Below the pieces are notes generated by a model. The model made no database searches and had not been told where the DNA came from. It saw only the letters and a list, made by a program, of their open reading frames with translations. A stretch of 64,000 nucleotides of DNA from Calditrichia bacterium (lineage in GTDB: Bacteria > Calditrichota > Calditrichia > RBG-13-44-9 > J075): assembly GCA_028284905.1 (NCBI GenBank), contig JANQQU010000003.1, forward strand, positions 1 through 64,000, written 5' to 3'. The position numbers were made by a program, and so were the translations under genes. Shown here piece by piece: positions 4,462 to 32,619 of this stretch. Positions within the stretch are counted from its first letter, which is position 1. The number at the start of each line of letters is the position of its first letter.

Positions 4462-4479
4462 CGGTCAATTCCCTCCAAA

Positions 4480-6157: not shown

Positions 6158-6244
6158 GTTCTTTATTTTTTCGATGACTGATACCCACTTATTTAATGGC
6201 CAATGCCCAACTTTCAATTTCCAATGCCAAAAGGCAACATCCCA

Positions 6245-6961: not shown

Positions 6962-7028
6962 ATTCTCCTTCTACACATGCACCGGAAGCGCCATGCTGAA
7001 CCATGGATCGCCCACGAGGGGCAATACA

Positions 7029-7721: not shown

Positions 7722-7804
7722 GAGTTGTTCCTCCGCTTTAAAGTAGTAATCTGCGCTTTCGCGTTTATTTATTTTATTTTATTTATTATCAATATCTTAA
7801 AGAA

Positions 7805-17615: not shown

Positions 17616-19946
17616 TTGAAAAAGTATCTGTTTAGTTTACTCTTGATAATTATGACCAGCGGCAGCGGATTCGCACAGGCAGCAGATGAAAGCTCCCTCA
17701 GCGGTTACGTCTATGATAATGCCAACAAGGAAGCACTGATTGGGGTGAACGTTTACATCGCCGATCTGCTGGTTGGCGCTGCGACAAACACCAGCGGGTA
17801 TTACATTATCCCGAAGGTGCCGCCGGGAGATTATACCATTATCTTCGAATACCTCGGCTATCGAACCGCTTCCCGGAAAGTGACGCTTGAAGCGGAAGAA
17901 GACAAAGTTCTCGACTTTTTCCTCAGTGAAGCTGTAGTGGAAGGGCAAGTCGTGCAAGTCGTTGCGGATTCGATTCGGGTGAGTGAAAAGCTTTATCGCA
18001 AACCGGTTTCCAATGTGCAGTTAAATGCCCGCCAGATTAATGCGATTCCGCAGGTGGCGGAGTCGGACTTGCTCCGTTCCCTGCATAGCTTACCGGGTAT
18101 TTTGCCGGTATCAGATTTTTCCTCGGCGCTTTACGTGCGGGGCGGTACGCCGGATCAAAACCTTTATTTGCTGGACGGCACCGACGTTTACAATCCGGAA
18201 CATGCTTTCGGGATTTTTTCCACCTTTAACACCGATGCCATTAAGCATGTGGATATTTCCAAGGGCGGTTTTAGCGCAGCCTATGGCGGCCGCCTCTCTT
18301 CCGTATTGGATGTGATCAACCTGGACGGCAATCGCGAGGAATTTGAGGGCAGTGCAGCAATTAGTCTACTTTCTGCGAAAACCACTCTGCAGATGCCCAT
18401 TGGGAACAGTGGGGCAATTTCCGGATCCATTCGCCGCACCTATTTCGATCAAACGATTGCCGGCGCCATTGATGAAATCCCCGATTACTATTTCTATGAC
18501 GGCAACCTGAAAGCATTTTACGAGATCGACAAAAAGAACAAACTCACCCTCAGCGGTTATGGCGGCCGGGATGTTCTTCGGGTCATTTTTAACGAAGACG
18601 CCAGCGAAGAAGCGGCATTGGAAACCGATTGGGGAAATAAGACCGGTAGCCTGAAATGGACCCGGGTGTTTAATCCGCGCCTGTTTGCCAATTTCTGGAT
18701 TACCGGCAGCCGTTTTACCGGCAACCTGAATCTGGGAGAAACGATTCCGGTTAATGAGCGAAATTTCATCTCGGACCTGACTTTCAAAGGAAACATGGAA
18801 TATCATTATTCCCAGGAATTCCTCGCGCAATTTGGCTTCGAGCAAAAAAATCTTCATGTCATATTTCGGCAGGATTTTCCCGGAGGCGAGGTTGATGTTG
18901 ACGAAAATGGCACTCACTACGTCGGCTATCTGCAGGGCAACTGGCGCCCGGGCAGCCGCTGGGATATTGAAGCAGGATTGCGCTTCAACGTCTTCAACTC
19001 TGATACCACTTATCGGAATGCCGAGCCGCGCCTCTCGCTCAAATATCGCCTGAATAAAACCACCAATCTCAAGCTGGCCAGTGGCGTTTATTATCAATAC
19101 TTACAGCGGATTCCGCGCTCGTTCGTTACGGATATTTGGGCGAACACCAATAGCTTTCAGCCGCCCTCGAACGCCCGGCATTTCATCCTTGGTTTCCAGA
19201 AAGAGATTGCTGAGAACTACCAGTTTGAAGTAGAAACCTATTACAAGGAATATGAAAATATTTATCGTTTCGACCCGAACTTCCTCACTAGTCTGGAAGC
19301 GGGGCGTTTTAATGACGATAATGAACCAGTATTCACTTCTGCCAAAGGTTTGTTCAACCAGGGCGATGGCGAATCTTACGGCTTCGAGATGATTCTCCGT
19401 AAGGATGTTGGCGCAATGACCGGCTGGATCGGCTATTCTTATGCCCGTACGGAATACAAATTTCCAAGTATCAACGATGGGGAAGTATTTTTACCGCGCC
19501 ACGATCGTCGCTCGACGCTCAATGTGGTTGGTAACATCGACGTGAAGAACCTGATTAACCACACCCAGGGGAAACCGTTCCGGAAGCATCGGGGCAACTG
19601 GCGGGTTGGCGTCAACCTGATTTATGCCAGCGGGCAACCGATTACCATGCCCGGCTCGGCTTATATTACCGGCTCGGCGCCGAATGCGAATAATCGTTTC
19701 GTCAGCTATTATCCGGCGGCGATCAACAATTATCGTTTGCCTCATTATGCCCGGCTGGACCTCAGTATTTCCTATAAGCGGCAATATAGCGGCTGGACCT
19801 TCTCTCCCTATCTGCAGATTTACAACATCGGTAATCGCAAAAATGTCTGGTTCATCGATTACGATTACAGCAATGGCATCAGCGATATTGAAACGATCAA
19901 TATGTTCCCGATTCTGCCGACCATCGGGGTGAACTTTACATTCTAA
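17616..19946 (+). CDS. TonB-dependent outer-membrane receptor with N-terminal carboxypeptidase-regulatory-like (CarbopepD_reg) domain
   Basis: 776 aa. Signal peptide, LSGYVYD...GVNVYI...TNTSGYYII CarbopepD_reg, plug domain, C-terminal beta-barrel ending in aromatic F. Confidence 0.85.
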   Translation: MKKYLFSLLLIIMTSGSGFAQAADESSLSGYVYDNANKEALIGVNVYIADLLVGAATNTSGYYIIPKVPPGDYTIIFEYLGYRTASRKVTLEAEEDKVLDFFLSEAVVEGQVVQVVADSIRVSEKLYRKPVSNVQLNARQINAIPQVAESDLLRSLHSLPGILPVSDFSSALYVRGGTPDQNLYLLDGTDVYNPEHAFGIFSTFNTDAIKHVDISKGGFSAAYGGRLSSVLDVINLDGNREEFEGSAAISLLSAKTTLQMPIGNSGAISGSIRRTYFDQTIAGAIDEIPDYYFYDGNLKAFYEIDKKNKLTLSGYGGRDVLRVIFNEDASEEAALETDWGNKTGSLKWTRVFNPRLFANFWITGSRFTGNLNLGETIPVNERNFISDLTFKGNMEYHYSQEFLAQFGFEQKNLHVIFRQDFPGGEVDVDENGTHYVGYLQGNWRPGSRWDIEAGLRFNVFNSDTTYRNAEPRLSLKYRLNKTTNLKLASGVYYQYLQRIPRSFVTDIWANTNSFQPPSNARHFILGFQKEIAENYQFEVETYYKEYENIYRFDPNFLTSLEAGRFNDDNEPVFTSAKGLFNQGDGESYGFEMILRKDVGAMTGWIGYSYARTEYKFPSINDGEVFLPRHDRRSTLNVVGNIDVKNLINHTQGKPFRKHRGNWRVGVNLIYASGQPITMPGSAYITGSAPNANNRFVSYYPAAINNYRLPHYARLDLSISYKRQYSGWTFSPYLQIYNIGNRKNVWFIDYDYSNGISDIETINMFPILPTIGVNFTF

Positions 19947-19975
19947 AGACAGCGACAAGTATTAAGGAGATACCA

Positions 19976-20884
19976 ATGAACCTGAAAACATATATCAAGA
20001 ATGGATTGCTGATTTTATTCTTCGCTGTCCTGTTCAATGCCTGCGGAGAAGGTACGGTTAACATCGATGAAAATCAGTATGAAGCGAAGATCGCCATCGA
20101 AGCGATTCTCGTTCCCAATCAGCCAGTAGAGAAGATTTACATTTCCCGTAATTTCCGGGTAAATCAGAATCTGCAACGCACCAACATTTTTCTTCCCAAT
20201 GCCGATGTCGTCTTGACGGACGTAGATAATGACGAGATCTATACCCTACAATTCGATTCGGATAAATTATGGTTTTATTATCCGGGAAATGACCTGACCA
20301 TCGGCTACGAACAGACCTATCGTTTGGATGTGACGGCAAGAATCGAAGGGGAAGTATTACAAGCCAGCGCCACCACTACCACCCCGAAAGCCGGTCTGGA
20401 CATTGTTGGCGTCAATTACGATACCCTTGCTTATTTTCAACGCAATGCCAATGACGAGCTGCTTTTCTTCGAATTGGCATTTCAGCGAGCGCCCGGCACC
20501 GATTTTTATTTACAAACCACCACGGCACTGGATGCCGAGGTGAGCAGCTTCGTTTACGATAATCCCTACGACGACTATACCGAAGAAGAAGTGCTGGACG
20601 ATCTCACCGATTTTAGTTACGAATGGGAGTGGATCCAGAACACTCCGATGACACCGGGCATTACCAATATGGAAATCTTCTGGTTCGATATCTGGTTTTA
20701 TGGCCGCTATGAAATTGTGGTCTATGCAGCAGATCCGAATTACCAGGATTTCCTACGCACCTACAGTGAAGTACAGGATGATGACGGCAACTTCCACGCG
20801 CCGGTGTTTCATATTGAGGGAGATGGCATTGGGGTGTTTGGGTCGGCTGTTGCGGATACGGTTTATTTGACGGTTATACCGTAA
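19976..20884 (+). CDS. DUF4249-family lipoprotein (partner of CarbopepD_reg TonB receptors)
   Basis: Lipobox LFNACG. Size, position immediately downstream of the TonB receptor, and sequence character fit DUF4249. Confidence 0.6.
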   Translation: MNLKTYIKNGLLILFFAVLFNACGEGTVNIDENQYEAKIAIEAILVPNQPVEKIYISRNFRVNQNLQRTNIFLPNADVVLTDVDNDEIYTLQFDSDKLWFYYPGNDLTIGYEQTYRLDVTARIEGEVLQASATTTTPKAGLDIVGVNYDTLAYFQRNANDELLFFELAFQRAPGTDFYLQTTTALDAEVSSFVYDNPYDDYTEEEVLDDLTDFSYEWEWIQNTPMTPGITNMEIFWFDIWFYGRYEIVVYAADPNYQDFLRTYSEVQDDDGNFHAPVFHIEGDGIGVFGSAVADTVYLTVIP

Positions 20885-20913
20885 TATATATAAATTGTGT
20901 ATGGGTAATTCAT

Positions 20914-20941
20914 GTAGAGACAGTTCATGAACTGTCTCTAC
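20914..20941. repeat. 28-bp perfect palindrome GTAGAGACAGTTCATGAACTGTCTCTAC (family copy 1)
   Basis: Perfect self-complementarity. Lies between convergent genes (DUF4249 / pspA), so it may act as a bidirectional terminator hairpin. Confidence 0.6.
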
Positions 20942-20969
20942 AATGTTTTGTTAATTAAACTTCGGAGCG

Positions 20970-21704
20970 TTATTCGCTTTTTGCGGTATCATCACTACCG
21001 GCGTTCAACCCCATTTTTGCCTTCAGGGCGGCCAGTGAGTCGGATGCGGCAACAGCAGTGTCATCTGCAAGCGCGCGTTCGATTTCTTCGTCGGTGCTCA
21101 ATGAAGCATCACTCATTTCGCCATAAGCTTCTGCCAGTGCTTCTTCTTCCGTTACCTTGTCCTTCATTTTTTCCAGCATAGCGACTGTACTGGAAGAATC
21201 TACCTGGGACATCTGCTTGTTAATCTTTTTCATAGATTCAGCAGTGCGTGCCCGGGCACGTAAGGTAATCAGTTCATTTTCATATTTGGTGATAGCAGAC
21301 TTAAGCTTATTGACCTTGCTCTGCAGCTGGTCAGCCAATTTTTGCTGATGGGAATGGTTGGTCAAAAACTCCTTGGAGCGGTTTTCTGCTTCTTCTTTGC
21401 GGGTTAAAGATTCCATCGCCAGGCGATCGGCATCGGCCATTTCCATCGTGCCCTTCTCGGCTTTCTGCAGTAACAGCATAGCTTTTCTTTCATAATCAAG
21501 GGCGCGTTTTTTCTGGTCTTCGCCATCTTTACGCATGCGGATAGAAATTGCTTTTACTTCTGCCAGACTTTTCATGGCACCGGCGAGGTCTTTTTTAAGA
21601 TCGCGAATGCCCTGCTCAGTCATTTTGATCGGATCTTCCAGTTTATCGACAACGGAATTTGCTTCTGCTTTGGTGATTCGAAAAATTCTCGAAAAGATAC
21701 CCAT
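20970..21704 (-). CDS. pspA: PspA/IM30/Vipp1-family membrane-stress protein (copy 1)
   Basis: 244 aa all-helical. MGIFSRIFRITKAEANSVVDKLEDPIKMTEQGIRDLKKDL is the canonical PspA N-terminus. Confidence 0.9.
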   Translation of the reverse strand: MGIFSRIFRITKAEANSVVDKLEDPIKMTEQGIRDLKKDLAGAMKSLAEVKAISIRMRKDGEDQKKRALDYERKAMLLLQKAEKGTMEMADADRLAMESLTRKEEAENRSKEFLTNHSHQQKLADQLQSKVNKLKSAITKYENELITLRARARTAESMKKINKQMSQVDSSSTVAMLEKMKDKVTEEEALAEAYGEMSDASLSTDEEIERALADDTAVAASDSLAALKAKMGLNAGSDDTAKSE

Positions 21705-21740
21705 GTTCTATACTCCTTTCATCAAGGTTTATCGTCGTTT

Positions 21741-22133
21741 TTAGTGTTTAATATATTCCAGCAATTCATTACCATTTTCGGCCAGGGCCAGGGAAAGGGC
21801 CTGTACCGATGCTTCCAGTTCGTTGTGATCGAGATTTTCCAACTGCAGCGTATCGCGGAAAATAACGTATTTTGCTTCATCATCAAGAACGAAAGCGCCA
21901 TGAACCATCGAACGGTTCATCTGTAACAAACGCTTGAAGAAAGTGTCAGTATCATCCGGAACCGGCATAATGCGCTGTTCCAGAACCACGATCGGATCTT
22001 CACAATCGATTACCAAGTTATTGATACCATCATCGGGATCTTGAACGACGACCAACTCTTCGCCTTCATCTTCATAAGAGATTTTCATGTTCATGTCCAA
22101 GAGATAACTTTTTACCATTTCATACTTACTCAT
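21741..22133 (-). CDS. YbjN-like (T3SS-chaperone-like) domain protein, PspA-associated
   Basis: 130 aa acidic protein. Pattern compatible with the YbjN/putative sensory transduction regulator fold. Directly upstream of pspA in the same orientation. Confidence 0.5.
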   Translation of the reverse strand: MSKYEMVKSYLLDMNMKISYEDEGEELVVVQDPDDGINNLVIDCEDPIVVLEQRIMPVPDDTDTFFKRLLQMNRSMVHGAFVLDDEAKYVIFRDTLQLENLDHNELEASVQALSLALAENGNELLEYIKH

Positions 22134-22197
22134 TTTTTCCTCCTTTGATAATAATATGGTTCGGTAAAAGGGTTATAATGTTTGTTGATTTTTGAAA

Positions 22198-22560
22198 TTA
22201 TTTACTCAAATGTTTTTGTAACTGATCATAGGCATAATTCAACTGCTGCACCAATTCGTTGGCGGTTTTTTGTTTTACGCTATCGCTGCTGTGTTTGTCA
22301 GGGTGATACTGCTTTAGCAGCCGCTTCCAGGCTTTCGTAACCGTTTCCAGATCCGCGCCATAGGGCAATTCCAGGTTGGCATAATATTGGGCGATTTTCG
22401 GATCCAGGCCGCTGTCAGCGCTGCCGCCATGGTTGCTGCCGGTTTCCCATTTGTTTCGTTTTTTCTGACGATTGCTGCTGTCGACCGTTGGCGTATCATC
22501 ATTCCGTCCGGCGTTGAAATTTGCCCGGAGAATATTATACACACGAGAGAATATTGACAT
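22198..22560 (-). CDS. J-domain protein (DnaJ-like co-chaperone, no Zn-finger/CTD)
   Basis: C-terminal J domain with HPD motif (KAWKRLLKQYHPDKH...LNYAYDQL). N-terminus is low complexity. Confidence 0.8.
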   Translation of the reverse strand: MSIFSRVYNILRANFNAGRNDDTPTVDSSNRQKKRNKWETGSNHGGSADSGLDPKIAQYYANLELPYGADLETVTKAWKRLLKQYHPDKHSSDSVKQKTANELVQQLNYAYDQLQKHLSK

Positions 22561-22653
22561 TTTGTATCGCCTTTCCAGCGCTTTTAAATCGAATATTTAT
22601 TTAGTTTTAATTTACTACTGAAATCCTTTTCAAGAACCATGCCGAATTTTGGT

Positions 22654-23697
22654 TCAAACCGTCACTTCCGGCTGGCCGTGGGCAATCAGGATCAGGTGAT
22701 CCTCATCGACGAGTTTATAGTCCGTTGCCGGATTGGAAATCACCCGTTCGCTTTGCTCCTTGTAAATGGCTAAAACAATACTGTTGTATTCCTGTTTCAT
22801 CGCGGTAAAAACTTCGATAAATGTTTTTTCCTGCAGATGCTCCGGCACGGGAATCCGGTAAAAATCATTACCGGTACCGGCACTCAGCAATTCGGAAACC
22901 ACTTTCGAGATACCATGATTCAATGCCGTGCGGGAAATCAGGTGACTACTGAATTCGTTGGTAACAATAATTTCATCCGCACGCGCCCGTTGGCAATGGC
23001 GCACATTGCGCTCATCAACCAGCTCGACAATGGTATACGCACCGCGGTTCATGCCTTCTACCGTAAGGGTTGAGAGCACCACCTGGGCATCGCGGGCATT
23101 ATCATCCAGTTTATCATCACCGAGAATAATGACCGTATTGGCCGAAGCGAGATGCGCCCGCTGCATATTTTCCTCATTAACATCCCCGTTAATGAAAAAG
23201 AGATTTTCGTCCTCTACCGGCTTTTCGTCGATTTTGGCAATCAGCACAATTGGCGACGTTGCGGTGCGGCTGTCTGATCGTAAATCGCGGAGAATTTCCC
23301 GGGCCCGGTAATTCCATTCGCAAATGATGATGTGATCGGTTAACGTAAATGATCCCATACCACGGTTTTCCTTCAGTTTTCTTTCCACAAAAACACTGGC
23401 AATTGTTGCTGTAAACATACCGAGAATGCCGATTCCCAGTAACATTGTAATCGCCCCTATCGTCCTACCACCCAGGGTTTGCGGGGTAATGTCGCCATAT
23501 CCCACAGTGGTCATGGTAACAATACTCCACCAGAATGCGTTTGTCCAGCTGACATCTTTCTCAAAAATGACCAGGCCGACAGTGCTGGTGACGAGCAAGG
23601 CAAGTATGATGAACAGTATCCGATGAATATTTTCCCGGATAATGAAATAGTTAATCTGATAAAGAACCTTACCGAGTTTTTCTTTTATTTTCACCAA
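22654..23697 (-). CDS. Potassium channel (2TM + pore loop TVGYGD) with cytoplasmic RCK/TrkA domain
   Basis: K+ selectivity filter TTVGYGDITP. RCK_N (IIICEWNYRAREIL...) and RCK_C-like region. Confidence 0.85.
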   Translation of the reverse strand: MVKIKEKLGKVLYQINYFIIRENIHRILFIILALLVTSTVGLVIFEKDVSWTNAFWWSIVTMTTVGYGDITPQTLGGRTIGAITMLLGIGILGMFTATIASVFVERKLKENRGMGSFTLTDHIIICEWNYRAREILRDLRSDSRTATSPIVLIAKIDEKPVEDENLFFINGDVNEENMQRAHLASANTVIILGDDKLDDNARDAQVVLSTLTVEGMNRGAYTIVELVDERNVRHCQRARADEIIVTNEFSSHLISRTALNHGISKVVSELLSAGTGNDFYRIPVPEHLQEKTFIEVFTAMKQEYNSIVLAIYKEQSERVISNPATDYKLVDEDHLILIAHGQPEVTV

Positions 23698-23768
23698 TCG
23701 TCTCTGCCTTAACTGCTGCGAGTATTTTTGAATCTCGCTGTCAACGTATTCATCATTGTTCTATTAAA

Positions 23769-25358
23769 TCAATAAATTTCCCAGTCACCGGCCTTGTAAT
23801 AATGAAACAGCGCCAGCTCCAGCTCCTGGTTAATTTTAATATCCTCAAAACCAGCCAATTCATTTTTTCCGAAATGCAGCATACTGATCATGGCGTCATT
23901 ATTCAGGAAGCGCGTCTCCAAATTTTCAAATTGCAAATTGCCCAACCGTTTTTTCAATGCATCCGGAGAATTTGCCTTTGCGTTTACACCAAGCACCCAG
24001 CCCCATTCTCCCAAAGTCGGAATATGATTATGATAGGGCTGCGTAGTAAGGCCGCTCGCTTCCATTGTTTTCAATATACAGAGAAATGCTTCCCGGGAAA
24101 AGAACGGACTGCCGGCCTGGGTGACCATCACGCCTCCCTTGGAAAGATGCCGTTGCGCCAGCTGATAAAACTCCCGGCTGTAAAGCCGCGCCAGTTCGAT
24201 GGTTTTCGGATCCGGTAAGTCGATAATGATCACATCATATAATTCCGGATCTTCTTTCAGGAAAGCGTAGGCGTCTGTGTTCAGGATGTCTACCCGTTCA
24301 TCTTTTAGGGCGCCTTTATTGACCTGCTTAAATAATGGGTGATTAAGTCCCAGCTCGGTGACTGCCGGATCCAGATCGACCAGGCGAACTAAGGTCACTT
24401 CCGGATATTTGAGAATTTCCCGAACGGCCATACCATCGCCGCCGCCCAGCACCAACACGCGCTCGCGGGAAACACTGGCGCTCATTGCCGGATGCACCAG
24501 CGGCTCGTGGTAGCGTTCTTCATCATAGCTGCTGAACTGTTCGTTCCCATTCAAATAGAGCCAAAAATTGTCTTTCCATTGCGTCAGCACGATACGCTGA
24601 TACGGCGTTTGTGCCTGGTAAATGACCCGGTCTACGTATTTCTGCTGCTCCCCATACAGCACAATCGGTTGCGCGGTAATCATTAACGTGATCAATAAAA
24701 GCGGCACAATGACAAAGCCGGCAGTAAGTGACTTCCGATATTCCAAAGCATCGCGATGTCGATAAAAAAGCGCAGCGGCAACGGCAAAATTAACCATTCC
24801 CAGCAGGATTGGGGTATAGGTCAATCCCAGATAAGGCAGTGCGATAAAGGCAAAGGTCAAACCGCCAAACAAAGCACCGTAATAGTCTTTTTCCATTACC
24901 GAGCTAATATTAATACGCAAATCCTCAAAGAACTGATTCAGGCGGGTAGCGATAGGAATTTCCAACCCGATTAACAGGCCGATGGAAAATGACATCGGAT
25001 AAATGATCAGACCGAGCATGGAGACATAAATCGAGAGGAAATAGGTTGTAATCGCACTGACCGCACATAGCACGGAAAGCATTAACTCCAGGGTGATGAA
25101 TGCATCCAGCATGGCAGAACGAATGTATTTACTGAGGCGACTCCCGACGCCCATGGCAAAGAGCATGATGCTAATCGTCAGCGTCCACTGCAGGACCGAA
25201 TTGCCAAGCAGGTAACTGGCCAGGGTGGACATCACATACTCGGCGACGATGCCGGCCAGTCCGGTGGCGAAGATACAGGCTTTTAGCAGCCAGTTGCCGT
25301 TGATGGACTGTGGCTGGCTGCTACTGGTTTCGTTGATGTTGTGTTCTGCTGTGCTCAC
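23769..25358 (-). CDS. Membrane-anchored polyamine aminopropyltransferase (spermidine/spermine synthase-like) with N-terminal multi-TM domain
   Basis: About 7 N-terminal TM helices. C-terminal SpeE fold: VLVLGGGDGMAVREILKYPEVTLVRLVDLDPAV...VIIIDLPDP. Confidence 0.85.
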   Translation of the reverse strand: MSTAEHNINETSSSQPQSINGNWLLKACIFATGLAGIVAEYVMSTLASYLLGNSVLQWTLTISIMLFAMGVGSRLSKYIRSAMLDAFITLELMLSVLCAVSAITTYFLSIYVSMLGLIIYPMSFSIGLLIGLEIPIATRLNQFFEDLRINISSVMEKDYYGALFGGLTFAFIALPYLGLTYTPILLGMVNFAVAAALFYRHRDALEYRKSLTAGFVIVPLLLITLMITAQPIVLYGEQQKYVDRVIYQAQTPYQRIVLTQWKDNFWLYLNGNEQFSSYDEERYHEPLVHPAMSASVSRERVLVLGGGDGMAVREILKYPEVTLVRLVDLDPAVTELGLNHPLFKQVNKGALKDERVDILNTDAYAFLKEDPELYDVIIIDLPDPKTIELARLYSREFYQLAQRHLSKGGVMVTQAGSPFFSREAFLCILKTMEASGLTTQPYHNHIPTLGEWGWVLGVNAKANSPDALKKRLGNLQFENLETRFLNNDAMISMLHFGKNELAGFEDIKINQELELALFHYYKAGDWEIY

Positions 25359-25471
25359 TTTTTGCCTTCTACTTCCCGGAATGAATCCCGGGATTAAGTT
25401 CGAACGTCCGATGAATCGGACTTTTAATCAATCTTTGATTTACAGCTACTGCCACTGTTTACTTCTACTTG

Positions 25472-26317
25472 TCAAACGACCCAGCCTACCAGGAAGGAGG
25501 CGCCGATGTAGGAGAATGCTTCGATGGCGCCGGCGCCGATATTCGGGCGTTCCTGATTCACCAGCTCATCCGTCAGGCGCTCGCCCGGCAGCAACACTTT
25601 ATCGGTGATGTAGCGAAGAATCGGTAAGAGTAACAGGCCGAATGCCACGAAACCGGCAAAGGTCGACAAATTGTATTCCCAGGAAACAAAGTCCCCGGCA
25701 GCACCGATGCGGATAATATTGCCGATTGCTATTAGCACGCCGGCAAATGCGACGCCCACAGCTGCATTGTCTTTTTCGATTTCCGCATGCAGGTCGAATG
25801 GCAGGATCTTATTATAGACGATACCGGCAACAATCAGCACTGCTTGTCCGAGAATCCAGAAAGTCGCGGCTGTCCCCCAATCGCCTTCACCGGACATTGC
25901 GCCAAAAATCACCATACCAATCGCAATATGATTGGCCGCTTCGACGATACCGGTGCCAGGGTTTTGATCGTCGATAATCTCTTTAACATTATCGAAACCG
26001 CGGAGGATAATTTTATCATTGATATAAATGGAAAAGTTCAGCAGGATAATCGAAATAACACCGTAGAAAAAGATATCGATCAAATCCACCATCCACCCTT
26101 CGGATTCGCTGGAAAGCACGCCCCCGAGCGCGATAACCAGCCCGAAATAATAACCGGCAACCGCCAGGGCCAGGGCAAAATTGTCTTTCTTAACCAATTC
26201 TTCCCGCACATTAATGCGGCGATTGCTGAAATCGTAGAAAACTTTTCCCAGGTAGAATAAAATGAAAACTGCAACTAGGTAGATTAACGCTGTTACTATT
26301 TGGTCGAGTGTCATCAC
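25472..26317 (-). CDS. DUF350-family membrane protein (two DUF350 repeats; YjfL-like)
   Basis: 281 aa with two ~130-aa internal repeats of 4 TM segments with Gly-rich helices, typical of DUF350. Confidence 0.65.
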   Translation of the reverse strand: MMTLDQIVTALIYLVAVFILFYLGKVFYDFSNRRINVREELVKKDNFALALAVAGYYFGLVIALGGVLSSESEGWMVDLIDIFFYGVISIILLNFSIYINDKIILRGFDNVKEIIDDQNPGTGIVEAANHIAIGMVIFGAMSGEGDWGTAATFWILGQAVLIVAGIVYNKILPFDLHAEIEKDNAAVGVAFAGVLIAIGNIIRIGAAGDFVSWEYNLSTFAGFVAFGLLLLPILRYITDKVLLPGERLTDELVNQERPNIGAGAIEAFSYIGASFLVGWVV

Positions 26318-26391
26318 CTCTCCTTTATTAAATCGATTGCCGCCTGTCGCTTACCACTGTCAATTGTTAATCATACTTCAAATTTATTCGC

Positions 26392-27114
26392 TTATTTACC
26401 GAAGCCACCACTTCGGCTGCGCGACCGGCTCATATTACTGCGGCGGGTCCGATTCTTCACTTTCTCGGAAAAGGAACGCTTTCGTTGTGCTTCCCGAACC
26501 TGGCGGCGCTGGAAAAAGTTTGGATTGGATTTTTTGGTGTAATTACCATAGGTGCCGTATTGATTTTTGTTGCCGAAATAAGGCTTTCCGCGGTTGCGGT
26601 AGTTGCGGTAGCTGTCGTAGTCGTTACGATAGACCGGGCGGTCAAACATGCCAAATACTGTTTGTAGCATCGCATATTTACCGTAAAATTCCCAGAAAGA
26701 AGTGCCGTTGGAATCAGTGCGCCATTGACCATATTGCGGGTTGCCAACATACTGATAGCCAGGAGGATATTGATTGTTATCGACATCACCATCTGGCGAT
26801 TTGGACGCCAGGGTCATGCCAAGATATTGATCGTACTTTTCATATTCCCGCTTGTCAACCCGCTCCCAGTCGGAAACTTCACTCCGGTAAACCATGCTAT
26901 CGCTGCCGCTTCCCCGTTCACCATAGATCGTTTTATAGCGATGATAGTATTCCGGAAAGAAATTCCCGTCCTGCTTCATATCCTCCAGAACAATCGAATA
27001 TTCCGGATACTGCTCCATACTGGATTGCAGCTTGCTAATCGGCGAAGATTTGTTACAGGCGGTAAGAAATATGCCCGCAAACAATAAGGTAAGAATGATA
27101 TAATGTCGCCTCAC
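26392..27114 (-). CDS. Lipoprotein, Tyr/Asn/Gly/Arg-rich with basic Ser/Arg tail (function unknown; occupies the position of DUF4247/YjfM-type partners)
   Basis: The ORF-track start (27219) overlaps DUF4178. A GTG at 27112-27114 preceded by AGGAGA gives VRRHYIILTLLFAGIFLTAC, a lipoprotein signal with lipobox. Confidence 0.45.
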   Translation of the reverse strand: MRRHYIILTLLFAGIFLTACNKSSPISKLQSSMEQYPEYSIVLEDMKQDGNFFPEYYHRYKTIYGERGSGSDSMVYRSEVSDWERVDKREYEKYDQYLGMTLASKSPDGDVDNNQYPPGYQYVGNPQYGQWRTDSNGTSFWEFYGKYAMLQTVFGMFDRPVYRNDYDSYRNYRNRGKPYFGNKNQYGTYGNYTKKSNPNFFQRRQVREAQRKRSFSEKVKNRTRRSNMSRSRSRSGGFGK

Positions 27115-27187
27115 AGTAATTCTCCTGATTTTGTCCCAAATGCGTGATTTGATGTGTCTCCGATCTCCATACCGCTCCGCCTTGCTA

Positions 27188-27733
27188 TTACTGTCCCGGT
27201 AAAATGTTACTAAACTCATATTCCTCTACATACCTGCCCCGGGCAGCTTCAAATTCTTCCTCTCCCCATTGCTCGATGGCAATAAAGTTCTCCTCATCGT
27301 CATCAATGAATTCCCATTGAATAAAGCCGATTTTCGGTCCCTTGCCACCTTTCATAAAATAGGCGGATCCGGATTCATCTAAATAGTAGGAGGTTGCTTC
27401 CACGACAATCTCATTGGGTGGATCATCATTGTCCATAATGTAGCGATGGATATTGCCATCGATTTTCCCGATGGGCATTTTTTTACTGATGCTCCAATAG
27501 ACCTCATCATCTTCCGTGCGTTCCAAAAAAATTTTTTCCCGGCCAGTAGTCAATTCCCACTCATCTCCATAAAGTCCATCCCCGTAATCGTAGCGGTTAC
27601 AGGCGGTTACTTCCCAGGTTTTCAGGTCATAATCGACGTAATAACCGACCTTCATCTTCACCAGTTCGAGATCCGCTAATGGATCAAAATCATCATTCTC
27701 GTTTTTGTCTTTGAACATGTCAAAAATGCCCAT
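27188..27733 (-). CDS. DUF4178-family protein
   Basis: 181 aa, acidic, Trp/Tyr-rich. Size, composition and neighbourhood (DUF350 + membrane SpeE) match the conserved DUF4178 association. Confidence 0.55.
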   Translation of the reverse strand: MGIFDMFKDKNENDDFDPLADLELVKMKVGYYVDYDLKTWEVTACNRYDYGDGLYGDEWELTTGREKIFLERTEDDEVYWSISKKMPIGKIDGNIHRYIMDNDDPPNEIVVEATSYYLDESGSAYFMKGGKGPKIGFIQWEFIDDDEENFIAIEQWGEEEFEAARGRYVEEYEFSNILPGQ

Positions 27734-27810
27734 TTTTCCTCCGGTTTACTGCTCAAAAATTCAATCTGTTACAATATTTTTAATATAGATTTTCTAATTC
27801 TGTGAATCAA

Positions 27811-27851
27811 GGTGACTGCTAAAAAACGGGTGGCCGTTTTCAGGGCCACCC
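27811..27851. terminator. Bidirectional intrinsic terminator (AACGGGTGGCC-gttttcag-GGCCACCCGTT flanked by A-run and T-run)
   Basis: Perfect 11-bp stem. TTGGTTTT follows on plus and TTTT on minus. Lies downstream of flotillin (minus strand). Confidence 0.7.
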
Positions 27852-27872
27852 GTTTTGGTTTTCACCATGGTA

Positions 27873-29396
27873 TTACTTACTATCAGCGCTATCAATCGCT
27901 TTATCAGGGTTTTCATCTTGATCAGATTGGGTGTGTCCATTTTGCGGCGGATAAGGTAATTCCTGCTTCTGGAACTGACTGAGGATGTTCACACCAGTGG
28001 CGTTTTCAATTTGCTCCGAAAGGGAGATCAGCGCGCTGGGGAGCTGATTGATAAATCGGGAAACCCCGTTGCCGTTGCCATTTCCGGAATCGATGACGCT
28101 CACCTTGTCGATAGTTACCTTGCCAACCGTATCGGTCAACTGCTGCATAATGTCCGGCAACATGTTGAGCATAAAGACTTTCTCGCCATCGCCATTAGCA
28201 TTCTGATAAACCGAGATCATCTCTGCCAATACTTCCAGGTTTGCTTTACCTTTTTCCAGGATCGGTGCGGCTTCACCCTGGGCAGCAAGTTCTTTCGCTT
28301 GCTTATCGGCGCGGGCCGGCTCGATTATGTCAGCCATCAAGCGCTTCTTCTGTAAGAGAATCCGCTCTTCTTCCATTTCCTGCTCGTATTTCGCCTTGGC
28401 TTTTTCGCCGGCAACTTCTGCTTCTCTTTCCTTAATAATCGCTTCCCGTTCCAGCTCTGCTTTCTTAATACGCAAGTTATTCTCTTCCTGCTCAATACTC
28501 TGCTGAGCAACCGCATGAGAGACTTCAACTTCCTGGCGGGCTTTAATTTGTGCAGTTTTGATTTCCTGCTCGGCCTGTGCTTTCGCGATCTCCGCCATTT
28601 GCTGGGCATGTGCTTCGGAAACTTCTACGCCTTGATGCGCATTAATTTGCGCGGTCTTAATTTCCTGCTCCGCCTTTGCTTTCGCGATTTCCGCCTGCTG
28701 ACGGGAAAGTGCTTCTGCTTCTTCCGCCTCTGCGGTTCGTAATGCTTCCGCTTTCCGCGCTTCGGCAATAACTTCCGCAGTTTTCCGGCGGCCGATCGAA
28801 TCCAGATATCCGGCATCGTCGGAAACATTTTGGATTTTCAGAGTATCTAACTGCAGACCGAGCTGGTCCAGATCGTTGTCCGCTTCGCCAATCAGGCTTT
28901 GAGCAAATTTCAAGCGATCTTCATTAACTTCTTCCGGTGTTAATGTTGCCAGAACACCTCTCAGGTTTCCTTCCAATGTATCCTTGGCAATCTTGTGAAT
29001 ATCGTTAAACGGCTTTCCTAAGAAACGCTCAACAGCATTACCGAAAGAAGGTTCATTGGAATTAATTTTAACATTGGCGATTGCCTCCACACTCAGTGGA
29101 ATGCCACCTTTGGAATATGCATTCTTCACTGATAATTCGATCGGAATTGTTTCCAGGGACATCCGGGCGGCTCTCTCCACAACCGGCCAACGGATTGATC
29201 TGCCTCCACTAATTAAACGATATCCGACCACTGAGCCATCCGGCATTTTCCGTTTTTTACCGGAAATAACGATGACTTCATTGGGATGACAAACCATCAA
29301 CAGTTTGTTAATCATCATTACTACGACAATGGCGATAATCCCCAGAATAAATATTCCGCCCGCAAAAAAATTTTCAACGCCCATAATACCCTCCAA
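27873..29396 (-). CDS. Flotillin / SPFH (band 7) family protein, YqiK-like
   Basis: 507 aa. N-terminal TM, SPFH domain, long Ala/Glu-rich coiled region with an internal 33-aa tandem duplication. Confidence 0.9.
   Translation of the reverse strand: MEGIMGVENFFAGGIFILGIIAIVVVMMINKLLMVCHPNEVIVISGKKRKMPDGSVVGYRLISGGRSIRWPVVERAARMSLETIPIELSVKNAYSKGGIPLSVEAIANVKINSNEPSFGNAVERFLGKPFNDIHKIAKDTLEGNLRGVLATLTPEEVNEDRLKFAQSLIGEADNDLDQLGLQLDTLKIQNVSDDAGYLDSIGRRKTAEVIAEARKAEALRTAEAEEAEALSRQQAEIAKAKAEQEIKTAQINAHQGVEVSEAHAQQMAEIAKAQAEQEIKTAQIKARQEVEVSHAVAQQSIEQEENNLRIKKAELEREAIIKEREAEVAGEKAKAKYEQEMEEERILLQKKRLMADIIEPARADKQAKELAAQGEAAPILEKGKANLEVLAEMISVYQNANGDGEKVFMLNMLPDIMQQLTDTVGKVTIDKVSVIDSGNGNGNGVSRFINQLPSALISLSEQIENATGVNILSQFQKQELPYPPQNGHTQSDQDENPDKAIDSADSK
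28522..28720. repeat. ~99-bp tandem duplication (2 units, ~80% identity) inside the flotillin coiled-coil region
   Basis: Units ...CTTTAATTTGTGCAGTTTTGATTTCCTGCTCGGCCTGTGCTTTCGCGATCTCCGCC... and ...CATTAATTTGCGCGGTCTTAATTTCCTGCTCCGCCTTTGCTTTCGCGATTTCCGCC... Confidence 0.6.
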
Positions 29397-29482
29397 TTAT
29401 GTTTGGTTACTATTTTATATTATTCAATGCATCTGTATCGCTTTTCCAGCGAACATTCACTGCTGTGGGCATCCTGCACCGA

Positions 29483-30130
29483 TTAGACGAATTCCTTTTC
29501 CACCACATATGCTGTATTGTCTTTCACGCGTAACACAATCACCGTTTCTCCCTCCTGAAAATTATCCCGGTCTGCTTCATCAGCGGTAATTGCCAACAGT
29601 TGAAACTTGCGTCCATTGGCATTGAGGGTAATTTTTCCCTTGTTTTGCCGCGATAAATTGATGGTAACATTTGCCGGCATACCGGTTAATGAATTTAGGT
29701 TGAGAGAGCTGTCCACTTCGTTGCGAACGAGGTGATTGAGTGTTTTGTGCATTAGAAAACTGGCAATACCTCCCATTACGATAGCACTTGGGAGGGTAAT
29801 AAAGGCAGGAATGTTAAGTAGATTAAAAATGGTGCCAGTCATTCCGAAAAAAGCGACAAAGAAGATTGCATTGCGAAAGCTGAGAAACTTCGCGCCTTCC
29901 ACCAGGCCTTCGCTATCGGCAGCATCCCCCGCGGCGTCACTGTCTACGTCGACGTCCGCATCTGCATCAATGTCCATATCGCTCTGAAAATCTACATCGC
30001 CGTCGACATCGACATCCATTTCAACATCCGCATCCACATCAACATCCGCGTCTGTATCTCCACCAAAGAATAAAGAGATCGCAATAAATATTCCCCCTAC
30101 TATGAAACAGGCGAGATAAATTTTAAACAT
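29483..30130 (-). CDS. NfeD-like / YqiJ-like membrane protein (flotillin partner) with poly-acidic (D-V/A)n linker
   Basis: 215 aa. N-terminal TM, acidic repeat DADVDVDADVEMDVDVDGDVDF...DIDADADVDVDSD, 2 TM, C-terminal OB-fold-like beta domain. Lies immediately downstream of flotillin. Confidence 0.6.
   Translation of the reverse strand: MFKIYLACFIVGGIFIAISLFFGGDTDADVDVDADVEMDVDVDGDVDFQSDMDIDADADVDVDSDAAGDAADSEGLVEGAKFLSFRNAIFFVAFFGMTGTIFNLLNIPAFITLPSAIVMGGIASFLMHKTLNHLVRNEVDSSLNLNSLTGMPANVTINLSRQNKGKITLNANGRKFQLLAITADEADRDNFQEGETVIVLRVKDNTAYVVEKEFV
29935..30065. repeat. Hexanucleotide-periodic GACATC/GACGTC-type repeat encoding the (Asp-Val/Ala)n tract
   Basis: Seen directly as ...GTCGACATCGACATCCATTTCAACATCCGCATCCACATCAACATCCGCGTC... 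Confidence 0.5.
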
Positions 30131-30273
30131 GGCGCGCTCCTCAGTTTGTCATCGGTTCTGTCGATTATTTTTTTAAAAGGTAGAGCCGGGACAGGCGGTC
30201 AACCTGCCCGTGCTCTGGCATACCGGATGGGCACAACCGGTTGCTATCTATGTTAAAGGCATTGGCAATGGGA

Positions 30274-30996
30274 TTAGGAATCTTTCTTCTTGCCGGCTAA
30301 TTTCTTTTTCAACTGTGCTAATGCATCTTCTACGGATTTATCCTTCATTGCCTTATCGAGATCGATTTCTTTCTCTTTATCGGCACTTTCCAGCTTTAGC
30401 AATTCTTCCGATGCTTCCGCTTCTGCTTCCATTTGCAGGATCTTACCTTCGTAGGATTCCAGGGCTTTAATGGAGTCCAGATCACTAATGGAACTGGAAA
30501 TACTTCCCATTGCTTCCCGGGATTTCTTCAGAGCATTCTGGGTGCGCATTTGCGCGTCTGCGGCCAGCTTGCGCCGAATCAATTCTTCTTTCTTCCGCCG
30601 GGCGGTCTGAACCTGATCTTCCAGTTTATCCAGATTTTCCTTCATCTTTTCCGCGAGTGCTGTGGCAGTTTCTATTTCAGTTTCCAGGGCGCTTACCCGG
30701 TTGTCCAGTTCCAGCTTTTTCGTAATAATCTGACGGGCAAATTCCTCGTCGCCGCTCTCCAGGGCTGCTGCTGCCTTTTTCTCCAGCACCTCCGCCTGTC
30801 CACGGGTCATTTCGATTTTCTTCTCCAATTGCTTTTGCTGACCAATCGCTTTCACGGTTTCCCGGCGGAGTTCGATAATGCTTTCTTCCATATCGCGGAT
30901 AAGCTGTTTTACCATTACCTCCGGATCTTCAGCGGCATCCAGCATATGATTCACATTTGCTGAAATCAATTTGGAGATACGTTGTAAGATGTTCAT
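30274..30996 (-). CDS. pspA: PspA/IM30/Vipp1-family membrane-stress protein (copy 2)
   Basis: 240 aa. MNILQRISKLISANVNHMLDAAEDPEVMVKQLIRDMEESI is the canonical PspA N-terminus. Confidence 0.9.
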   Translation of the reverse strand: MNILQRISKLISANVNHMLDAAEDPEVMVKQLIRDMEESIIELRRETVKAIGQQKQLEKKIEMTRGQAEVLEKKAAAALESGDEEFARQIITKKLELDNRVSALETEIETATALAEKMKENLDKLEDQVQTARRKKEELIRRKLAADAQMRTQNALKKSREAMGSISSSISDLDSIKALESYEGKILQMEAEAEASEELLKLESADKEKEIDLDKAMKDKSVEDALAQLKKKLAGKKKDS

Positions 30997-31053
30997 GATA
31001 GAACCTCCATTAAGGATTTGTATTTACTTCGGACAGTCTGTGCTTGTCCCCCG

Positions 31054-31443
31054 TTAAGCCTGCATGATCCGCCGGATGTCTAGCCCTTCCTTATCGAGAG
31101 TGATTAACAAACCGGTCGATGCTTTGCAGTGCTTCAGGTAATTTCTTAATTTCACTTCATCGGTCAGGTTAATTTTTCTGTCCAGGCGGATAAACACCGC
31201 CAGGTCGTCAAAACACAAGAAGTCTTCTGTTACTTCTTTTCCTGATACTGCCGCAACTGCTCTGAGATTTTGAAATTTAACATTCTTCAGTTCGAATTCT
31301 TTCATCAATGCTTTTGCATAACTGCTGTTATTGTTATGCTGGGCGGTGCGATAAAAAGCGCGTTGCGCAGCGCGGATGATTAAAAAGGTTTTGGCCTCCC
31401 AGATGTCGGCCGCTTTGTTTTGATGTTTGCTTGTGTGTACCAT
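31054..31443 (-). CDS. GxxExxY-family (PD-(D/E)XK-like fold) small protein
   Basis: 129 aa. The pattern ...YAKALMKEFELKNVKFQNL...DFLCFDDLAVFIRLD...LRNYLKHCKASTGLLITL matches the GxxExxY architecture. First gene downstream of the sigma-54 promoter. Confidence 0.45.
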   Translation of the reverse strand: MVHTSKHQNKAADIWEAKTFLIIRAAQRAFYRTAQHNNNSSYAKALMKEFELKNVKFQNLRAVAAVSGKEVTEDFLCFDDLAVFIRLDRKINLTDEVKLRNYLKHCKASTGLLITLDKEGLDIRRIMQA

Positions 31444-31535
31444 TGCCCTCTACCCTCGTCAGCACATTAAATCTTCTGACTTTGCCTTCTTTAAGGCTTT
31501 TTCTTTTTCTCTTTTAACTTGCTACTTGTGCTATT

Positions 31536-31552
31536 CGCAACAGGTGTGCCAA
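31536..31552 (-). promoter_or_regulatory. Sigma-54 (RpoN) promoter, -24/-12: TTGGCACACCTGTTGCG
   Basis: Exact TGGCAC-N5-TTGC on the minus strand. Lies ~90 bp upstream of the GxxExxY gene and 0.54 kb upstream of pspA copy 2, and immediately downstream of the pspF-like gene. Confidence 0.7.
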
Positions 31553-31587
31553 ACAAGGGAATGCGGGTTTCAGGGGTTTTTCGGGGG

Positions 31588-31634
31588 AAATTTGGTGGTT
31601 TTTTTCGCCAACTTGGTTTTTTTCACCACCAATT
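31588..31634. promoter_or_regulatory. Inverted repeat AATTTGGTGG-N27(T-rich)-CCACCAATT upstream of the sigma-54 promoter (candidate enhancer/UAS)
   Basis: Arms at 31588-31598 and 31626-31634, lying 40-100 bp upstream of the -24 element. Confidence 0.35.
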
Positions 31635-31644
31635 ATCTGGTGTT

Positions 31645-32619
31645 TTACACCATTAATTCTTCAAGCTTGTATTTCTTATAGAAGTGCCGAAACTGATCGT
31701 AAGTCATTCCGAGCATCTCCGCGGCACTGCGCTGATTGCCTTCGGCTTCTTTCAATGCATTTAGGAGGAGGGTCTTTTCGTAGGCGCGAACTTTCTCGTA
31801 AAAATTTCCGCGAATGGGTTCTACCGAGGTAATTTCCATTGGCAGCTCGCTGGCGTGGATCGTGCCGTCTTCATCATAAAAATAAAGCCGCTCTATCATG
31901 TTTTTTAGTTGGCGGATATTGCCGGGCCAATAATAATTTTTCAGTTCGTTAATGGCCGAGGGCGTAAAGTTTTTTTCATCCAGATTGGGAATTTCCCGAT
32001 GGAGTTTGTCGATGAAATGGGCGATCAGGGCGGGAATGTCCTCCCGACGCTTTCGTAGGGGTGGGAGGGTTAGCTCTGCAAAAGAGAGGCGATCGTAGAG
32101 GTCTTCCAGGAATTCGCCATTTTTCATCATCTTTTCCAGGTCGGCATTTGTCGCGGCGATAATCCGTACATCGACGGTAATCGATTTGGTGCCCCCTAAT
32201 CTTTCGAACTTCTGATATTCAATTACCCGCAGCAACTTCTCCTGCACCGTGCGATTCATGTTCGCCACTTCATCGAGGAACAATGTACCGCCGTCGGCAA
32301 TCTCCAGTTTGCCGGCCTGGGCGTCAACCGCGCCGGTATAAGCCCCTTTCTCCCGGCCAAACATTTCAGCGATGATCAAATCTTCCTGAAAAGCGGCACA
32401 GTTTACAACAATATATGGTGCCTCGCCACGGCCGCTCTCGTTGTGAATGAATTGGGCAAGCAGCTCCTTGCCGGTGCCTCGCTCTCCACGGATCAACATG
32501 GGGCGGGCAATTTTTGCATAAGTAGATGCCTGCTGTAAGACTTTTACATATGCTTCGCTGTTCCCGATGCCAAAAGGAATTTTATTTTCGATTATTTGTT
32601 TTTTCATTTCGCCGGCCAT
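31645..32619 (-). CDS. pspF: PspF-like sigma-54-dependent transcriptional activator (AAA+ domain + C-terminal HTH, no receiver domain)
   Basis: 324 aa. Walker A GERGTGKE, GAFTGA-like loop (GAYTGA), Walker B/R-finger region, C-terminal Fis-type HTH. The receiver-less architecture is typical of PspF. Confidence 0.85.
   Translation of the reverse strand: MAGEMKKQIIENKIPFGIGNSEAYVKVLQQASTYAKIARPMLIRGERGTGKELLAQFIHNESGRGEAPYIVVNCAAFQEDLIIAEMFGREKGAYTGAVDAQAGKLEIADGGTLFLDEVANMNRTVQEKLLRVIEYQKFERLGGTKSITVDVRIIAATNADLEKMMKNGEFLEDLYDRLSFAELTLPPLRKRREDIPALIAHFIDKLHREIPNLDEKNFTPSAINELKNYYWPGNIRQLKNMIERLYFYDEDGTIHASELPMEITSVEPIRGNFYEKVRAYEKTLLLNALKEAEGNQRSAAEMLGMTYDQFRHFYKKYKLEELMV

Follow-up and report, generated by a model that had tools for sequence, protein, structure and literature searches.

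A PspA island of three modules in Calditrichota: a predicted PspF-type switch, a variable flotillin slot and a polyamine synthase operon

Results

Organisation and conservation of the island

We analysed 64,000 nucleotides of a Calditrichia bacterium (assembly GCA_028284905.1, contig JANQQU010000003.1, positions 1 to 64,000 of the forward strand; hereafter the window) and found that positions 20970-32619 hold 13 open reading frames (ORFs), all on the minus strand, which form a gene island around two paralogs of the membrane-stress protein PspA. The island is composed of three modules and is not one integrated operon. Module A contains a PspF-like activator gene, a sigma-54 promoter with upstream dyads, a GxxExxY-like gene and pspA2; module B is a pair of NfeD-type and flotillin genes; and module C comprises eight genes from DUF4178 to pspA1, including a membrane-anchored polyamine synthase, a K+ channel and a small J-domain protein. 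Our preferred reading, with a probability of about 0.6, is that the island is a Calditrichota-specific supra-operon of three separable membrane-maintenance modules.

Related loci were collected from one genome per species with the protein carrying two DUF350 domains as anchor, and the resulting 80 loci were compared by tblastn with all 13 island proteins; a metagenome scan anchored on pspA2 provided three further informative contexts (L083, L085 and L087; L numbers denote surveyed loci). The nearest loci came from Calditrichia metagenome-assembled genomes, with 74-79% identity. The results showed that the core of module C is conserved across many phyla: the lipoprotein was found in 78 of the 80 loci, the SpeE-type synthase in 73, DUF4178 in 68, the dyad of CesT-like protein and PspA1 in 50, the K+ channel in 23 from several phyla, and the J protein in 14. 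Module C stood alone in Acidobacteriota, KSB1, Bacteroidota and Desulfobacterota. The flotillin adjacency and pspA2 (3/80 each) and the activator (2/80) were present in Calditrichota only.

Modules A and C, presented as two adjoining units in the preliminary description of this DNA, lay side by side in all five pspA2 contexts with enough downstream sequence to be informative, that is, the window and its four relatives L001, L002, L004 and L083. Their adjacency has been kept at about 50-70% protein identity despite turnover of the intervening genes, which argues for selected linkage, not for co-transcription. The neighbourhood comparison thus bore out the arrangement among close relatives, while elsewhere the modules were mostly separate, and individually they had already been published. 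As for the genes themselves, the same description had counted twelve, its own list holding 13; its gene content, gene order and common orientation agreed with the ORF list of the window and with our profile searches, and every domain assignment, including DUF350, DUF4178 and YbjN, held when searched against Pfam and NCBIfam, with homologues and a structure model needed for NfeD.

A footprinted sigma-54 promoter and its predicted PspF-like activator

The sequence TGGCACACCTGTTGC is the single exact match to TGGCAC-N5-TTGC in the 64 kb of the window, where 0.19 matches are expected by chance, and confirms at 31551-31537 of the minus strand the exact sigma-54 promoter motif described earlier. Among the pspA2 orthologs that we examined, all those on contigs of more than 4 kb had the motif upstream with no more than one mismatch; together with the window this makes seven contexts (the window, L001, L002, L004, L083, L085 and L087), in six of which the activator gene adjoins pspA2.

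Pfam searches of the activator located Sigma54_activat (8e-62) at residues 18-183 and HTH_8 at residues 278-311. Because the AAA+ domain starts at residue 18, the protein has no N-terminal regulatory domain, in agreement with its earlier description as receiver-less. Its top NCBIfam family was PspF (TIGR02974), at 350.6 bits and thus under the cut-off of 443.55. Two full-length orthologues, 73-74% identical, also lack a regulatory domain, and a third (67%) is a truncated ORF.

Between the activator gene and the promoter we found three tandem dyads (TGGYG-N5-CRCCA), which are putative upstream activator sites; the one at 31638-31652 overlaps the activator stop codon and is the sole exact match in the window. 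In L001, L002, L004, L083 and L085 an exact dyad precedes the -24 element by about 43-77 nt, and the short contig L086 has an exact copy before its pspA2 ortholog; L087 had only a related, inexact dyad. The conserved sigma-54 motif and the dyads form a phylogenetic footprint predicted to mark a working promoter and enhancer. With promoter and upstream dyads kept across seven orthologous contexts, the PspF-like activator and sigma-54 logic proposed earlier stands for the first transcription unit.

Two other observations concern such activators. A second sigma-54 enhancer-binding paralog of 458 aa, 40% identical over the AAA+/HTH part and probably carrying an N-terminal regulatory domain, is encoded at 40803-42179 on the minus strand, as would fit an organism that uses sigma-54 generally. 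In L083, the gene directly upstream of the PspF-like activator (5037-8393) encodes a ClpB-like double AAA+ protein of 1118 aa, in which PCRF (release-factor) is the C-terminal domain.

The GxxExxY-like gene and pspA2

The protein encoded by the first gene behind the sigma-54 promoter matched PDDEXK_3 at 4e-8 (34.1 bits in Pfam, cut-off 22) and TIGR04256 at 36.2 bits (cut-off 35); an ExK nuclease motif was not seen by eye in the proteins of the window, L002 and L004. ORFs 27-29% identical to it occupy the same position in L001 (4500-4832, truncated), L002 (2977-3417), L004 (1406-1798) and L083 (9583-9960). We rejected the reading of this gene as a random selfish insertion, because a homologous ORF keeps its position in five loci, the window included.

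The two PspA paralogs are 26% identical to each other. PspA2 scored 106 bits against TIGR02977, compared with 53 bits for PspA1. Both start with an amphipathic alpha0 helix (MGIFSRIFRITKAEANSV and MNILQRISKLISANVNHM), with hydrophobic moments of 0.47 and 0.53. The stable hairpin behind pspA2, whose U tract is weak, may act as an attenuator and could raise the expression of pspA2 relative to that of NfeD and flotillin.

The NfeD-flotillin pair occupies a variable slot

The NfeD-type protein gave no significant match to the Pfam NfeD and YqiJ profiles (NfeD E 0.13). Among its homologues, 13 of 57 matched NfeD and 8 of 57 matched YqiJ_N. Its AlphaFold2 model (mean predicted local distance difference test, pLDDT, 80) was compared with the PDB by Foldseek, and the top five matches were YbbJ 8z5g, YuaF 2k14 (TMt 0.75), 1510-C 3wwv, 3cp0 (TMt 0.84) and 2k5h, all annotated as NfeD-family or similar small beta domains. 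The earlier NfeD call is therefore correct at the level of the fold, backed by homologues and predicted structure and not by a Pfam match of the protein itself.

The start codon of the flotillin gene, 98 nt behind NfeD (intergenic region 29385-29482), was taken from the gene call in L081 and from a GGAGG ribosome-binding site. The protein aligned to positions 4-469 of the 477 of the FloT model NF058507, the long C-terminal flotillin region included, at 192 bits against a cut-off of 700; it is flotillin-type and not a FloT ortholog.

NfeD is also paired with flotillin in L001, L002 and L085. The slot between pspA2 and DUF4178 (27873-30130 in the window) holds this pair in the window, L001 and L002. 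In L083 (10823-12119) it holds a 103-aa ORF without a Pfam match and a DUF6159 membrane protein, and in L004 (2528-2620) it is empty, DUF4178 following about 90 nt directly behind pspA2. In L085, whose contig ends before any DUF4178 gene, NfeD and flotillin follow pspA2 so tightly (13-nt gap) that co-transcription of the three genes is supported. These results suggest that NfeD-flotillin is an exchangeable cargo behind pspA2, probably reached by read-through past the hairpin; the pair, earlier taken as an integrated core part of the system, occupies a variable slot instead. An IS200-like ORF lies between pspA2 and NfeD in L002 (4841-5422).

A terminator and a second promoter, both predicted, separate module C

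The hairpin terminator reported between the two units proved to be real, with a stem at 27856-27823 followed by a U tract. A sigma-70-like promoter comes right behind it. L001, L004 and L005 have the same hexamers and spacing before DUF4178, and L006 has TTGACC-N18-TATATT; L005 and L006 carry this promoter although they are without module A. The conserved copies were located by a regular-expression search, since a MAFFT alignment of the DUF4178 upstream regions did not align the promoter. Upstream of DUF4178 we found no sigma-54 motif in 68 loci beyond chance-level matches with two mismatches, and sigma-54 control of unit 2 was therefore rejected. In L001, G+C-rich palindromes such as CCCCCCTTACCAAGGGGGG and CTCCCCTTAGTAAGGGGAG lie in the leader between this promoter and DUF4178 (about 8200-8330) and look like repetitive extragenic palindromic (REP)-type repeats. 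Between 20500 and 33200, no RNA family of Rfam matched at E up to 0.1, and thus no known riboswitch or leader is present.

Table 1. Genes and signals of the PspA island, in window coordinates and in the order of transcription (TM, transmembrane; dG, folding free energy)
Feature	Position	Strand	Description
PspF-like sigma-54 enhancer-binding protein, 324 aa	31645..32619	-	AAA+ with GAYTGA loop, lid, HTH_8
Three tandem dyads TGGYG-N5-CRCCA	31596-31610, 31614-31628, 31638-31652	.	putative upstream activator sites
Sigma-54 promoter TGGCACACCTGTTGC (-24 GG / -12 GC)	31537..31551	-	intergenic, correct orientation, 83 nt before first ATG
GxxExxY/PDDEXK_3-like protein, 129 aa	31054..31443	-	first gene behind sigma-54 promoter
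pspA2, 240 aa	30274..30996	-	more classical PspA-like paralog; PspA_IM30 6.5e-38, profile positions 1-217 of 220
Stable hairpin after pspA2	30179..30224	-	weak U tract (four U); dG -24.4 kcal/mol, z -3.6, 0/200 shuffles as stable
NfeD/YuaF/YqiJ-type membrane protein, 215 aa	29483..30130	-	TM helix, acidic D-x repeat, two TM helices, C-terminal OB-like beta domain
Flotillin-type SPFH protein, 503 aa	27873..29384	-	ATG at 29384; Band_7 2.9e-22
Intrinsic terminator closing unit 1	27817..27856	-	13-bp G+C-rich stem, then UUUUUU; dG -24.3 kcal/mol, z -4.7
Sigma-70-like promoter TTGATT-N17-TATATT for unit 2	27782..27810	-	right after terminator, 49 nt before DUF4178 start
DUF4178 protein, 181 aa	27188..27733	-	Pfam DUF4178 5.7e-22
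Ctha_1186-family lipoprotein, 240 aa	26392..27114	-	lipobox LTAC, basic low-complexity tail
YjfL-type membrane protein, 280 aa	25472..26314	-	two DUF350 domains (Pfam DUF350 1.3e-52, 2 stretches); 8-TM
Membrane-anchored polyamine aminopropyltransferase, 529 aa	23769..25358	-	N-terminal multi-TM (7TM) region and SpeE domain, GGGDG and DLPDP motifs
2-TM K+ channel with RCK domain	22654..23694	-	TTVGYGD filter; Ion_trans_2 1.7e-17, Slo-like_RCK, TrkA_N
J-domain protein, 120 aa	22198..22560	-	PspA-alpha0-like amphipathic N-terminus, disordered linker, J domain with HPD
CesT/Tir-like (YbjN-like) chaperone-fold protein, 130 aa	21741..22133	-	CesT_Tir_1 2e-50, YbjN 3.7e-6
pspA1, 244 aa	20970..21704	-	PspA_IM30 5.7e-42, profile positions 1-217 of 220; paired with CesT-like gene
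Hairpin at island end	20911..20945	.	13-bp perfect, between pspA1 and convergent DUF4249 gene; dG -19.2, z -6.2

The genes of module C

The lipoprotein gene starts at 27114 (GTG) and not, as first described, at 27219; the new start is the gene call in the identical public contig L081 and gives a standard lipobox signal peptide. The lipoprotein had no match in Pfam or NCBIfam, and its weak AlphaFold2 model (pLDDT 63.6) matched nothing in the PDB by Foldseek at E <= 0.001. A full-length alignment with Ctha_1186 of Chloroherpeton thalassium (E 8e-77) showed 50% identity. The aminopropyltransferase matched Spermine_synth at 3.2e-39 and passed the cut-off of NCBIfam PRK03612 (588.8 bits, cut-off 472). 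Pfam profile scans of the island proteins detected neither a SAM (S-adenosylmethionine) decarboxylase nor a polyamine transporter. The CesT-like gene and pspA1 are separated by 36 nt and are paired like the YjfJ-type dyads of CesT/Tir and PspA in Ravi et al. (PMC11237479).

The DUF4178 proteins of more than 30 loci share a conserved N-terminal peptide, MG[LFI]FDxFKK...DPLxDLxL, and both PspA and the J protein begin with residues similar to its first ones. These starts may be a shared membrane-targeting or chaperone-docking signal, and we speculate that the CesT-like protein might bind N-terminal peptides such as MGxFDxFKK of DUF4178.

A small J-domain protein with a PspA-like N-terminus

The J protein matched DnaJ at 2.1e-10, with its HPD within YHPDKH. 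We built a profile from 27 PspA1 N-termini and scored the 815 Met-started 18-mers of the window with it; the N-terminus of the J protein, MSIFSRVYNILRANFN, ranked third, behind PspA1 and PspA2 themselves, and its hydrophobic moment (0.52) is close to those of the two PspAs. Orthologues were found in L001, L002, L004-L008, L015, L018-L020, L022, L024, L058 and L083, and the alpha0-like motif is kept in 13 J-protein orthologues from several phyla. The triad of J protein, CesT-like protein and PspA was also present in an operon of the ATP-grasp type, L163. Besides the triad, this operon (1544-9623) encodes a 2xDUF350 protein, a histidine kinase with TPR, an ATP-grasp enzyme (GSP_synth) and three unknown proteins; it mixes themes of the second and third published groups of PspA operons (see below).

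PspA, IM30 and Vipp1 are bacterial ESCRT-III proteins. From its sequence features we tentatively propose, while regarding it as a possibility with the odds against it, that the J protein may be a dedicated adaptor bringing DnaK/Hsp70 to such assemblies of PspA by means of its alpha0-mimicking helix. The helix would insert together with PspA into the same stressed membrane patches or would dock into the polymer of PspA, after which Hsp70, set to work by the J domain, would drive disassembly or recycling. In vitro, VIPP1 rods form and come apart under the action of the plastid chaperones HSP70B-CDJ2-CGE1 (PMC12798727), and a PspA-directed Hsp70 adaptor is therefore plausible. For PspA homologues without an AAA+ partner the energy-dependent remodelling step is unknown (Ravi et al. 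2024, PMC11237479); if the proposal is true, the J protein supplies this step, as Vps4 does for ESCRT-III, and is the bacterial counterpart of CDJ2-HSP70B on VIPP1.

Comparison with known systems

Every protein family of the island has already been described, and so have the operon classes of modules B and C (PMC11237479). The second group of Ravi et al. 2024 (mSystems, PMC11237479) combines CesT/Tir-PspA with a 7TM-spermine synthase, YjfL/DUF350, the Ctha_1186 lipoprotein and DUF4178; its example is Shewanella oneidensis SO_3765 with its neighbours, and its lipoprotein domain is named after Ctha_1186 of Chloroherpeton thalassium. Module C resembles this group in having DUF4178, the Ctha_1186 lipoprotein with its low-complexity tail, YjfL/DUF350, the TM-fused synthase, CesT/Tir and PspA. 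It differs in that DUF4178 comes first in the island and after PspA in Shewanella, and in that the island adds an RCK K+ channel and a J-domain protein between SpeE and CesT. Some operons of the second group end with a ribbon-helix-helix regulator; at this end of the island there is no such ORF, the next features behind pspA1 being a hairpin and the convergent DUF4249 gene. The J domain is absent from the text of Ravi et al., and a K+ channel is reported there for the third group only (PMC11237479).

That third group is the PspA-polyamine (ATP-grasp) operon with a ligand-gated K+ channel (PMC11237479). Module C and E. coli yjfIJKLMC or the Alteromonas-type operons of the third group have CesT/Tir-PspA, YjfL/DUF350, a lipoprotein and a polyamine-modifying enzyme in common, and the Alteromonas-type operons also share the Ion_trans_2 and TrkA K+ channel with the island. 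The enzyme there is a glutathionylspermidine-synthetase-like ATP-grasp ligase, whereas here it is an aminopropyltransferase, and DUF1190 lipoprotein and DUF2491 stand there in place of Ctha_1186 and DUF4178.

The E. coli pspF-pspABCDE system resembles module A in that an AAA+ and HTH_8 activator without a regulatory domain, best matched by PspF, stands beside a pspA gene with a sigma-54 promoter and upstream dyads. E. coli PspF has about 325 aa, the island activator 324. In contrast to E. coli, where activator and pspA are divergent, the two are co-directional in the island; pspB, pspC, pspD and pspE do not accompany the island pspA, a GxxExxY-like gene precedes it, W56 of PspF is replaced by Gly, and the activator scored under the PspF cut-off. 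The host also differs, Calditrichota being a phylum of the FCB group, and PspF has been characterised only in Enterobacteriaceae (Popp et al. 2022, PMC9239133).

Module B has its parallel in the first group of Ravi et al., which joins PspA, a TM-Band7-flotillin and YqiJ/YuaF (PMC11237479), and in B. subtilis pspA-ydjGHI: each has an SPFH/flotillin protein and a 3-TM NfeD/YuaF-type protein beside pspA. In B. subtilis, the SPFH protein YdjI is needed to link PspA to the membrane (PMC8581546, PMC9239133). Unlike these systems, the island has neither a coiled-coil/beta-propeller AAA+ ATPase nor a phospholipase D, its PspA2 is without a CesT partner, and the pair lies behind a sigma-54 promoter, with DUF6159 or nothing standing in its place in relatives.

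The J protein recalls the Chlamydomonas HSP70B-CDJ2-CGE1/VIPP1 system, where a dedicated J-domain co-chaperone is tied to a PspA/IM30-family polymer, as would be the case in the island. CDJ2 comes from a eukaryotic plastid, and its gene does not lie beside that of VIPP1, whereas the J protein of the island, with 120 aa, has only a linker and a J domain behind its alpha0-like helix.

Relative to the literature searched, three features are new: a PspF/sigma-54/pspA module with defined enhancer dyads in Calditrichota, well-supported as a prediction from sequence; the placement of flotillin-NfeD downstream of a sigma-54 promoter; and the recurrence of a K+ channel and an alpha0-mimicking J protein in an operon of the aminopropyltransferase type.

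Discussion

A model of three modules and what weighs against it

The genes present, the sequences of promoter, dyads and terminator and the degree to which these are conserved were observed; the model that we infer from them is conditional in all its protein-protein and physiological steps. Module A would be a PspF-type autoregulatory switch, in which the activator, bound to the three dyads, drives transcription of the GxxExxY-like gene and pspA2 from the sigma-54 promoter. As in E. coli, PspA2 would keep the activator silent as long as no membrane stress calls PspA2 away to the membrane. Module B would be a scaffold pair, and read-through past the hairpin would bring flotillin under sigma-54/Psp control. 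Module C would be expressed from its own sigma-70-like promoter behind the strong terminator. Its synthase, anchored in the membrane, would produce polyamine either at the inner membrane or across it, the K+ channel would balance cation load and membrane potential, and PspA1, chaperoned by the CesT-like protein, would seal or remodel damaged membrane. The J protein, targeted by its alpha0-like helix, would recruit DnaK/Hsp70 to assemble or disassemble the PspA polymers.

Several results count against a supra-operon of this kind. Modules A and C have separate promoters and are apart in 77 of the 80 loci, and what argues for their functional coupling is conserved adjacency within one clade only. 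The hairpin after pspA2 may halt most transcripts before NfeD-flotillin. No pspB or pspC is present among the 13 genes of the island. The activator scored under the PspF equivalog cut-off, so that repression by PspA2 is conjectural. In E. coli PspF, W56 is the surface Trp that docks PspA. This residue aligns to G65 of the island activator, and the orthologues have K or D there, not an aromatic residue; the repression, if it exists, must therefore use another interface. L162 and L164, where no pspA is nearby, also encode more distant relatives of the J protein whose N-terminus is similar, and a literature search for the Shewanella homologues SO_3763-3766 returned no papers.

Alternative readings

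A coincidental juxtaposition, with three independent envelope-related operons lying side by side in one clade and not interacting functionally, is in our judgement unlikely, yet it survives better than the other alternatives. Each module has promoter or terminator signals of its own, the modules are mostly separate (only two or three of the 80 loci have the flotillin adjacency, pspA2 or the activator), and the content of the slot varies, all of which speaks for this reading. However, the adjacency of A and C has outlasted both the divergence to about 50-70% protein identity and the turnover of the slot, which is hard to explain without selection for linkage. Moreover, both modules centre on PspA paralogs, and published work ties PspA to SPFH proteins (PMC8581546) and to polyamine genes (PMC11237479).

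The preliminary description had favoured the opposite extreme, in which the whole 11.6 kb is one sigma-54/PspF system, with polyamine synthesis, K+ flux and flotillin scaffolding co-induced by membrane damage. We consider this improbable. The common orientation and short gaps of all 13 genes speak for it, as do the adjoining of A and C in every informative pspA2 context, the direct succession of pspA2 and DUF4178 in L004, and the fact that some read-through of a terminator is always possible. But a strong terminator (dG -24.3, z -4.7) separates flotillin from DUF4178, and the sigma-70-like promoter right behind it is kept in L004 and, in the absence of module A, in L005 and L006. The lack of any sigma-54 motif before DUF4178 in 68 loci and the occurrence of module C by itself in four phyla also contradict a common sigma-54 control, so that control over the whole island is unlikely. 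The further claim that nearly all partner themes known for PspA come together in this locus went too far, as PspB/C, Toastrack, LiaI/F, the AAA+ ATPase, TPM and ATP-grasp were not found among the 13 genes.

Polyamine and K+ pools are regulated reciprocally during osmoadaptation of E. coli. That module C is mainly a cation or osmotic homeostasis device exchanging polyamine against K+, with PspA1 an accessory and not a membrane-repair protein, is favoured by this reciprocity, by the company of a membrane-anchored aminopropyltransferase and an RCK-gated K+ channel in 23 loci from several phyla and by the K+ channels of ATP-grasp polyamine operons (PMC11237479), but we regard it as the least probable reading, given that the channel, which 57 of the 80 loci lack, is much less constant than the CesT-PspA dyad, DUF4178 and the lipoprotein, and that neither SAM decarboxylase nor polyamine transporter was detected in the island.

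Implications

If the three-module reading holds, the locus extends the published comparative-genomic framework and does not overturn current views. The regulation and recycling of PspA outside enterobacteria are little understood, and three testable handles are offered here. The first is a footprinted PspF-type circuit outside Proteobacteria that would operate without the W56 contact and has no PspB or PspC among the island genes. The second is flotillin/NfeD under predicted Psp control, as a replaceable cargo in a Calditrichota clade. The third is the recurrent J-CesT-PspA triad, which points to Hsp70 as the motor so far missing from the remodelling of PspA polymers.

Boundary of the island

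Downstream of pspA1, two genes on the plus strand (17616-20884) encode a TonB-dependent receptor with a CarboxypepD_reg domain and a DUF4249 protein, as would suit a member of the FCB group. They converge on the end of pspA1 and mark the boundary of the island.

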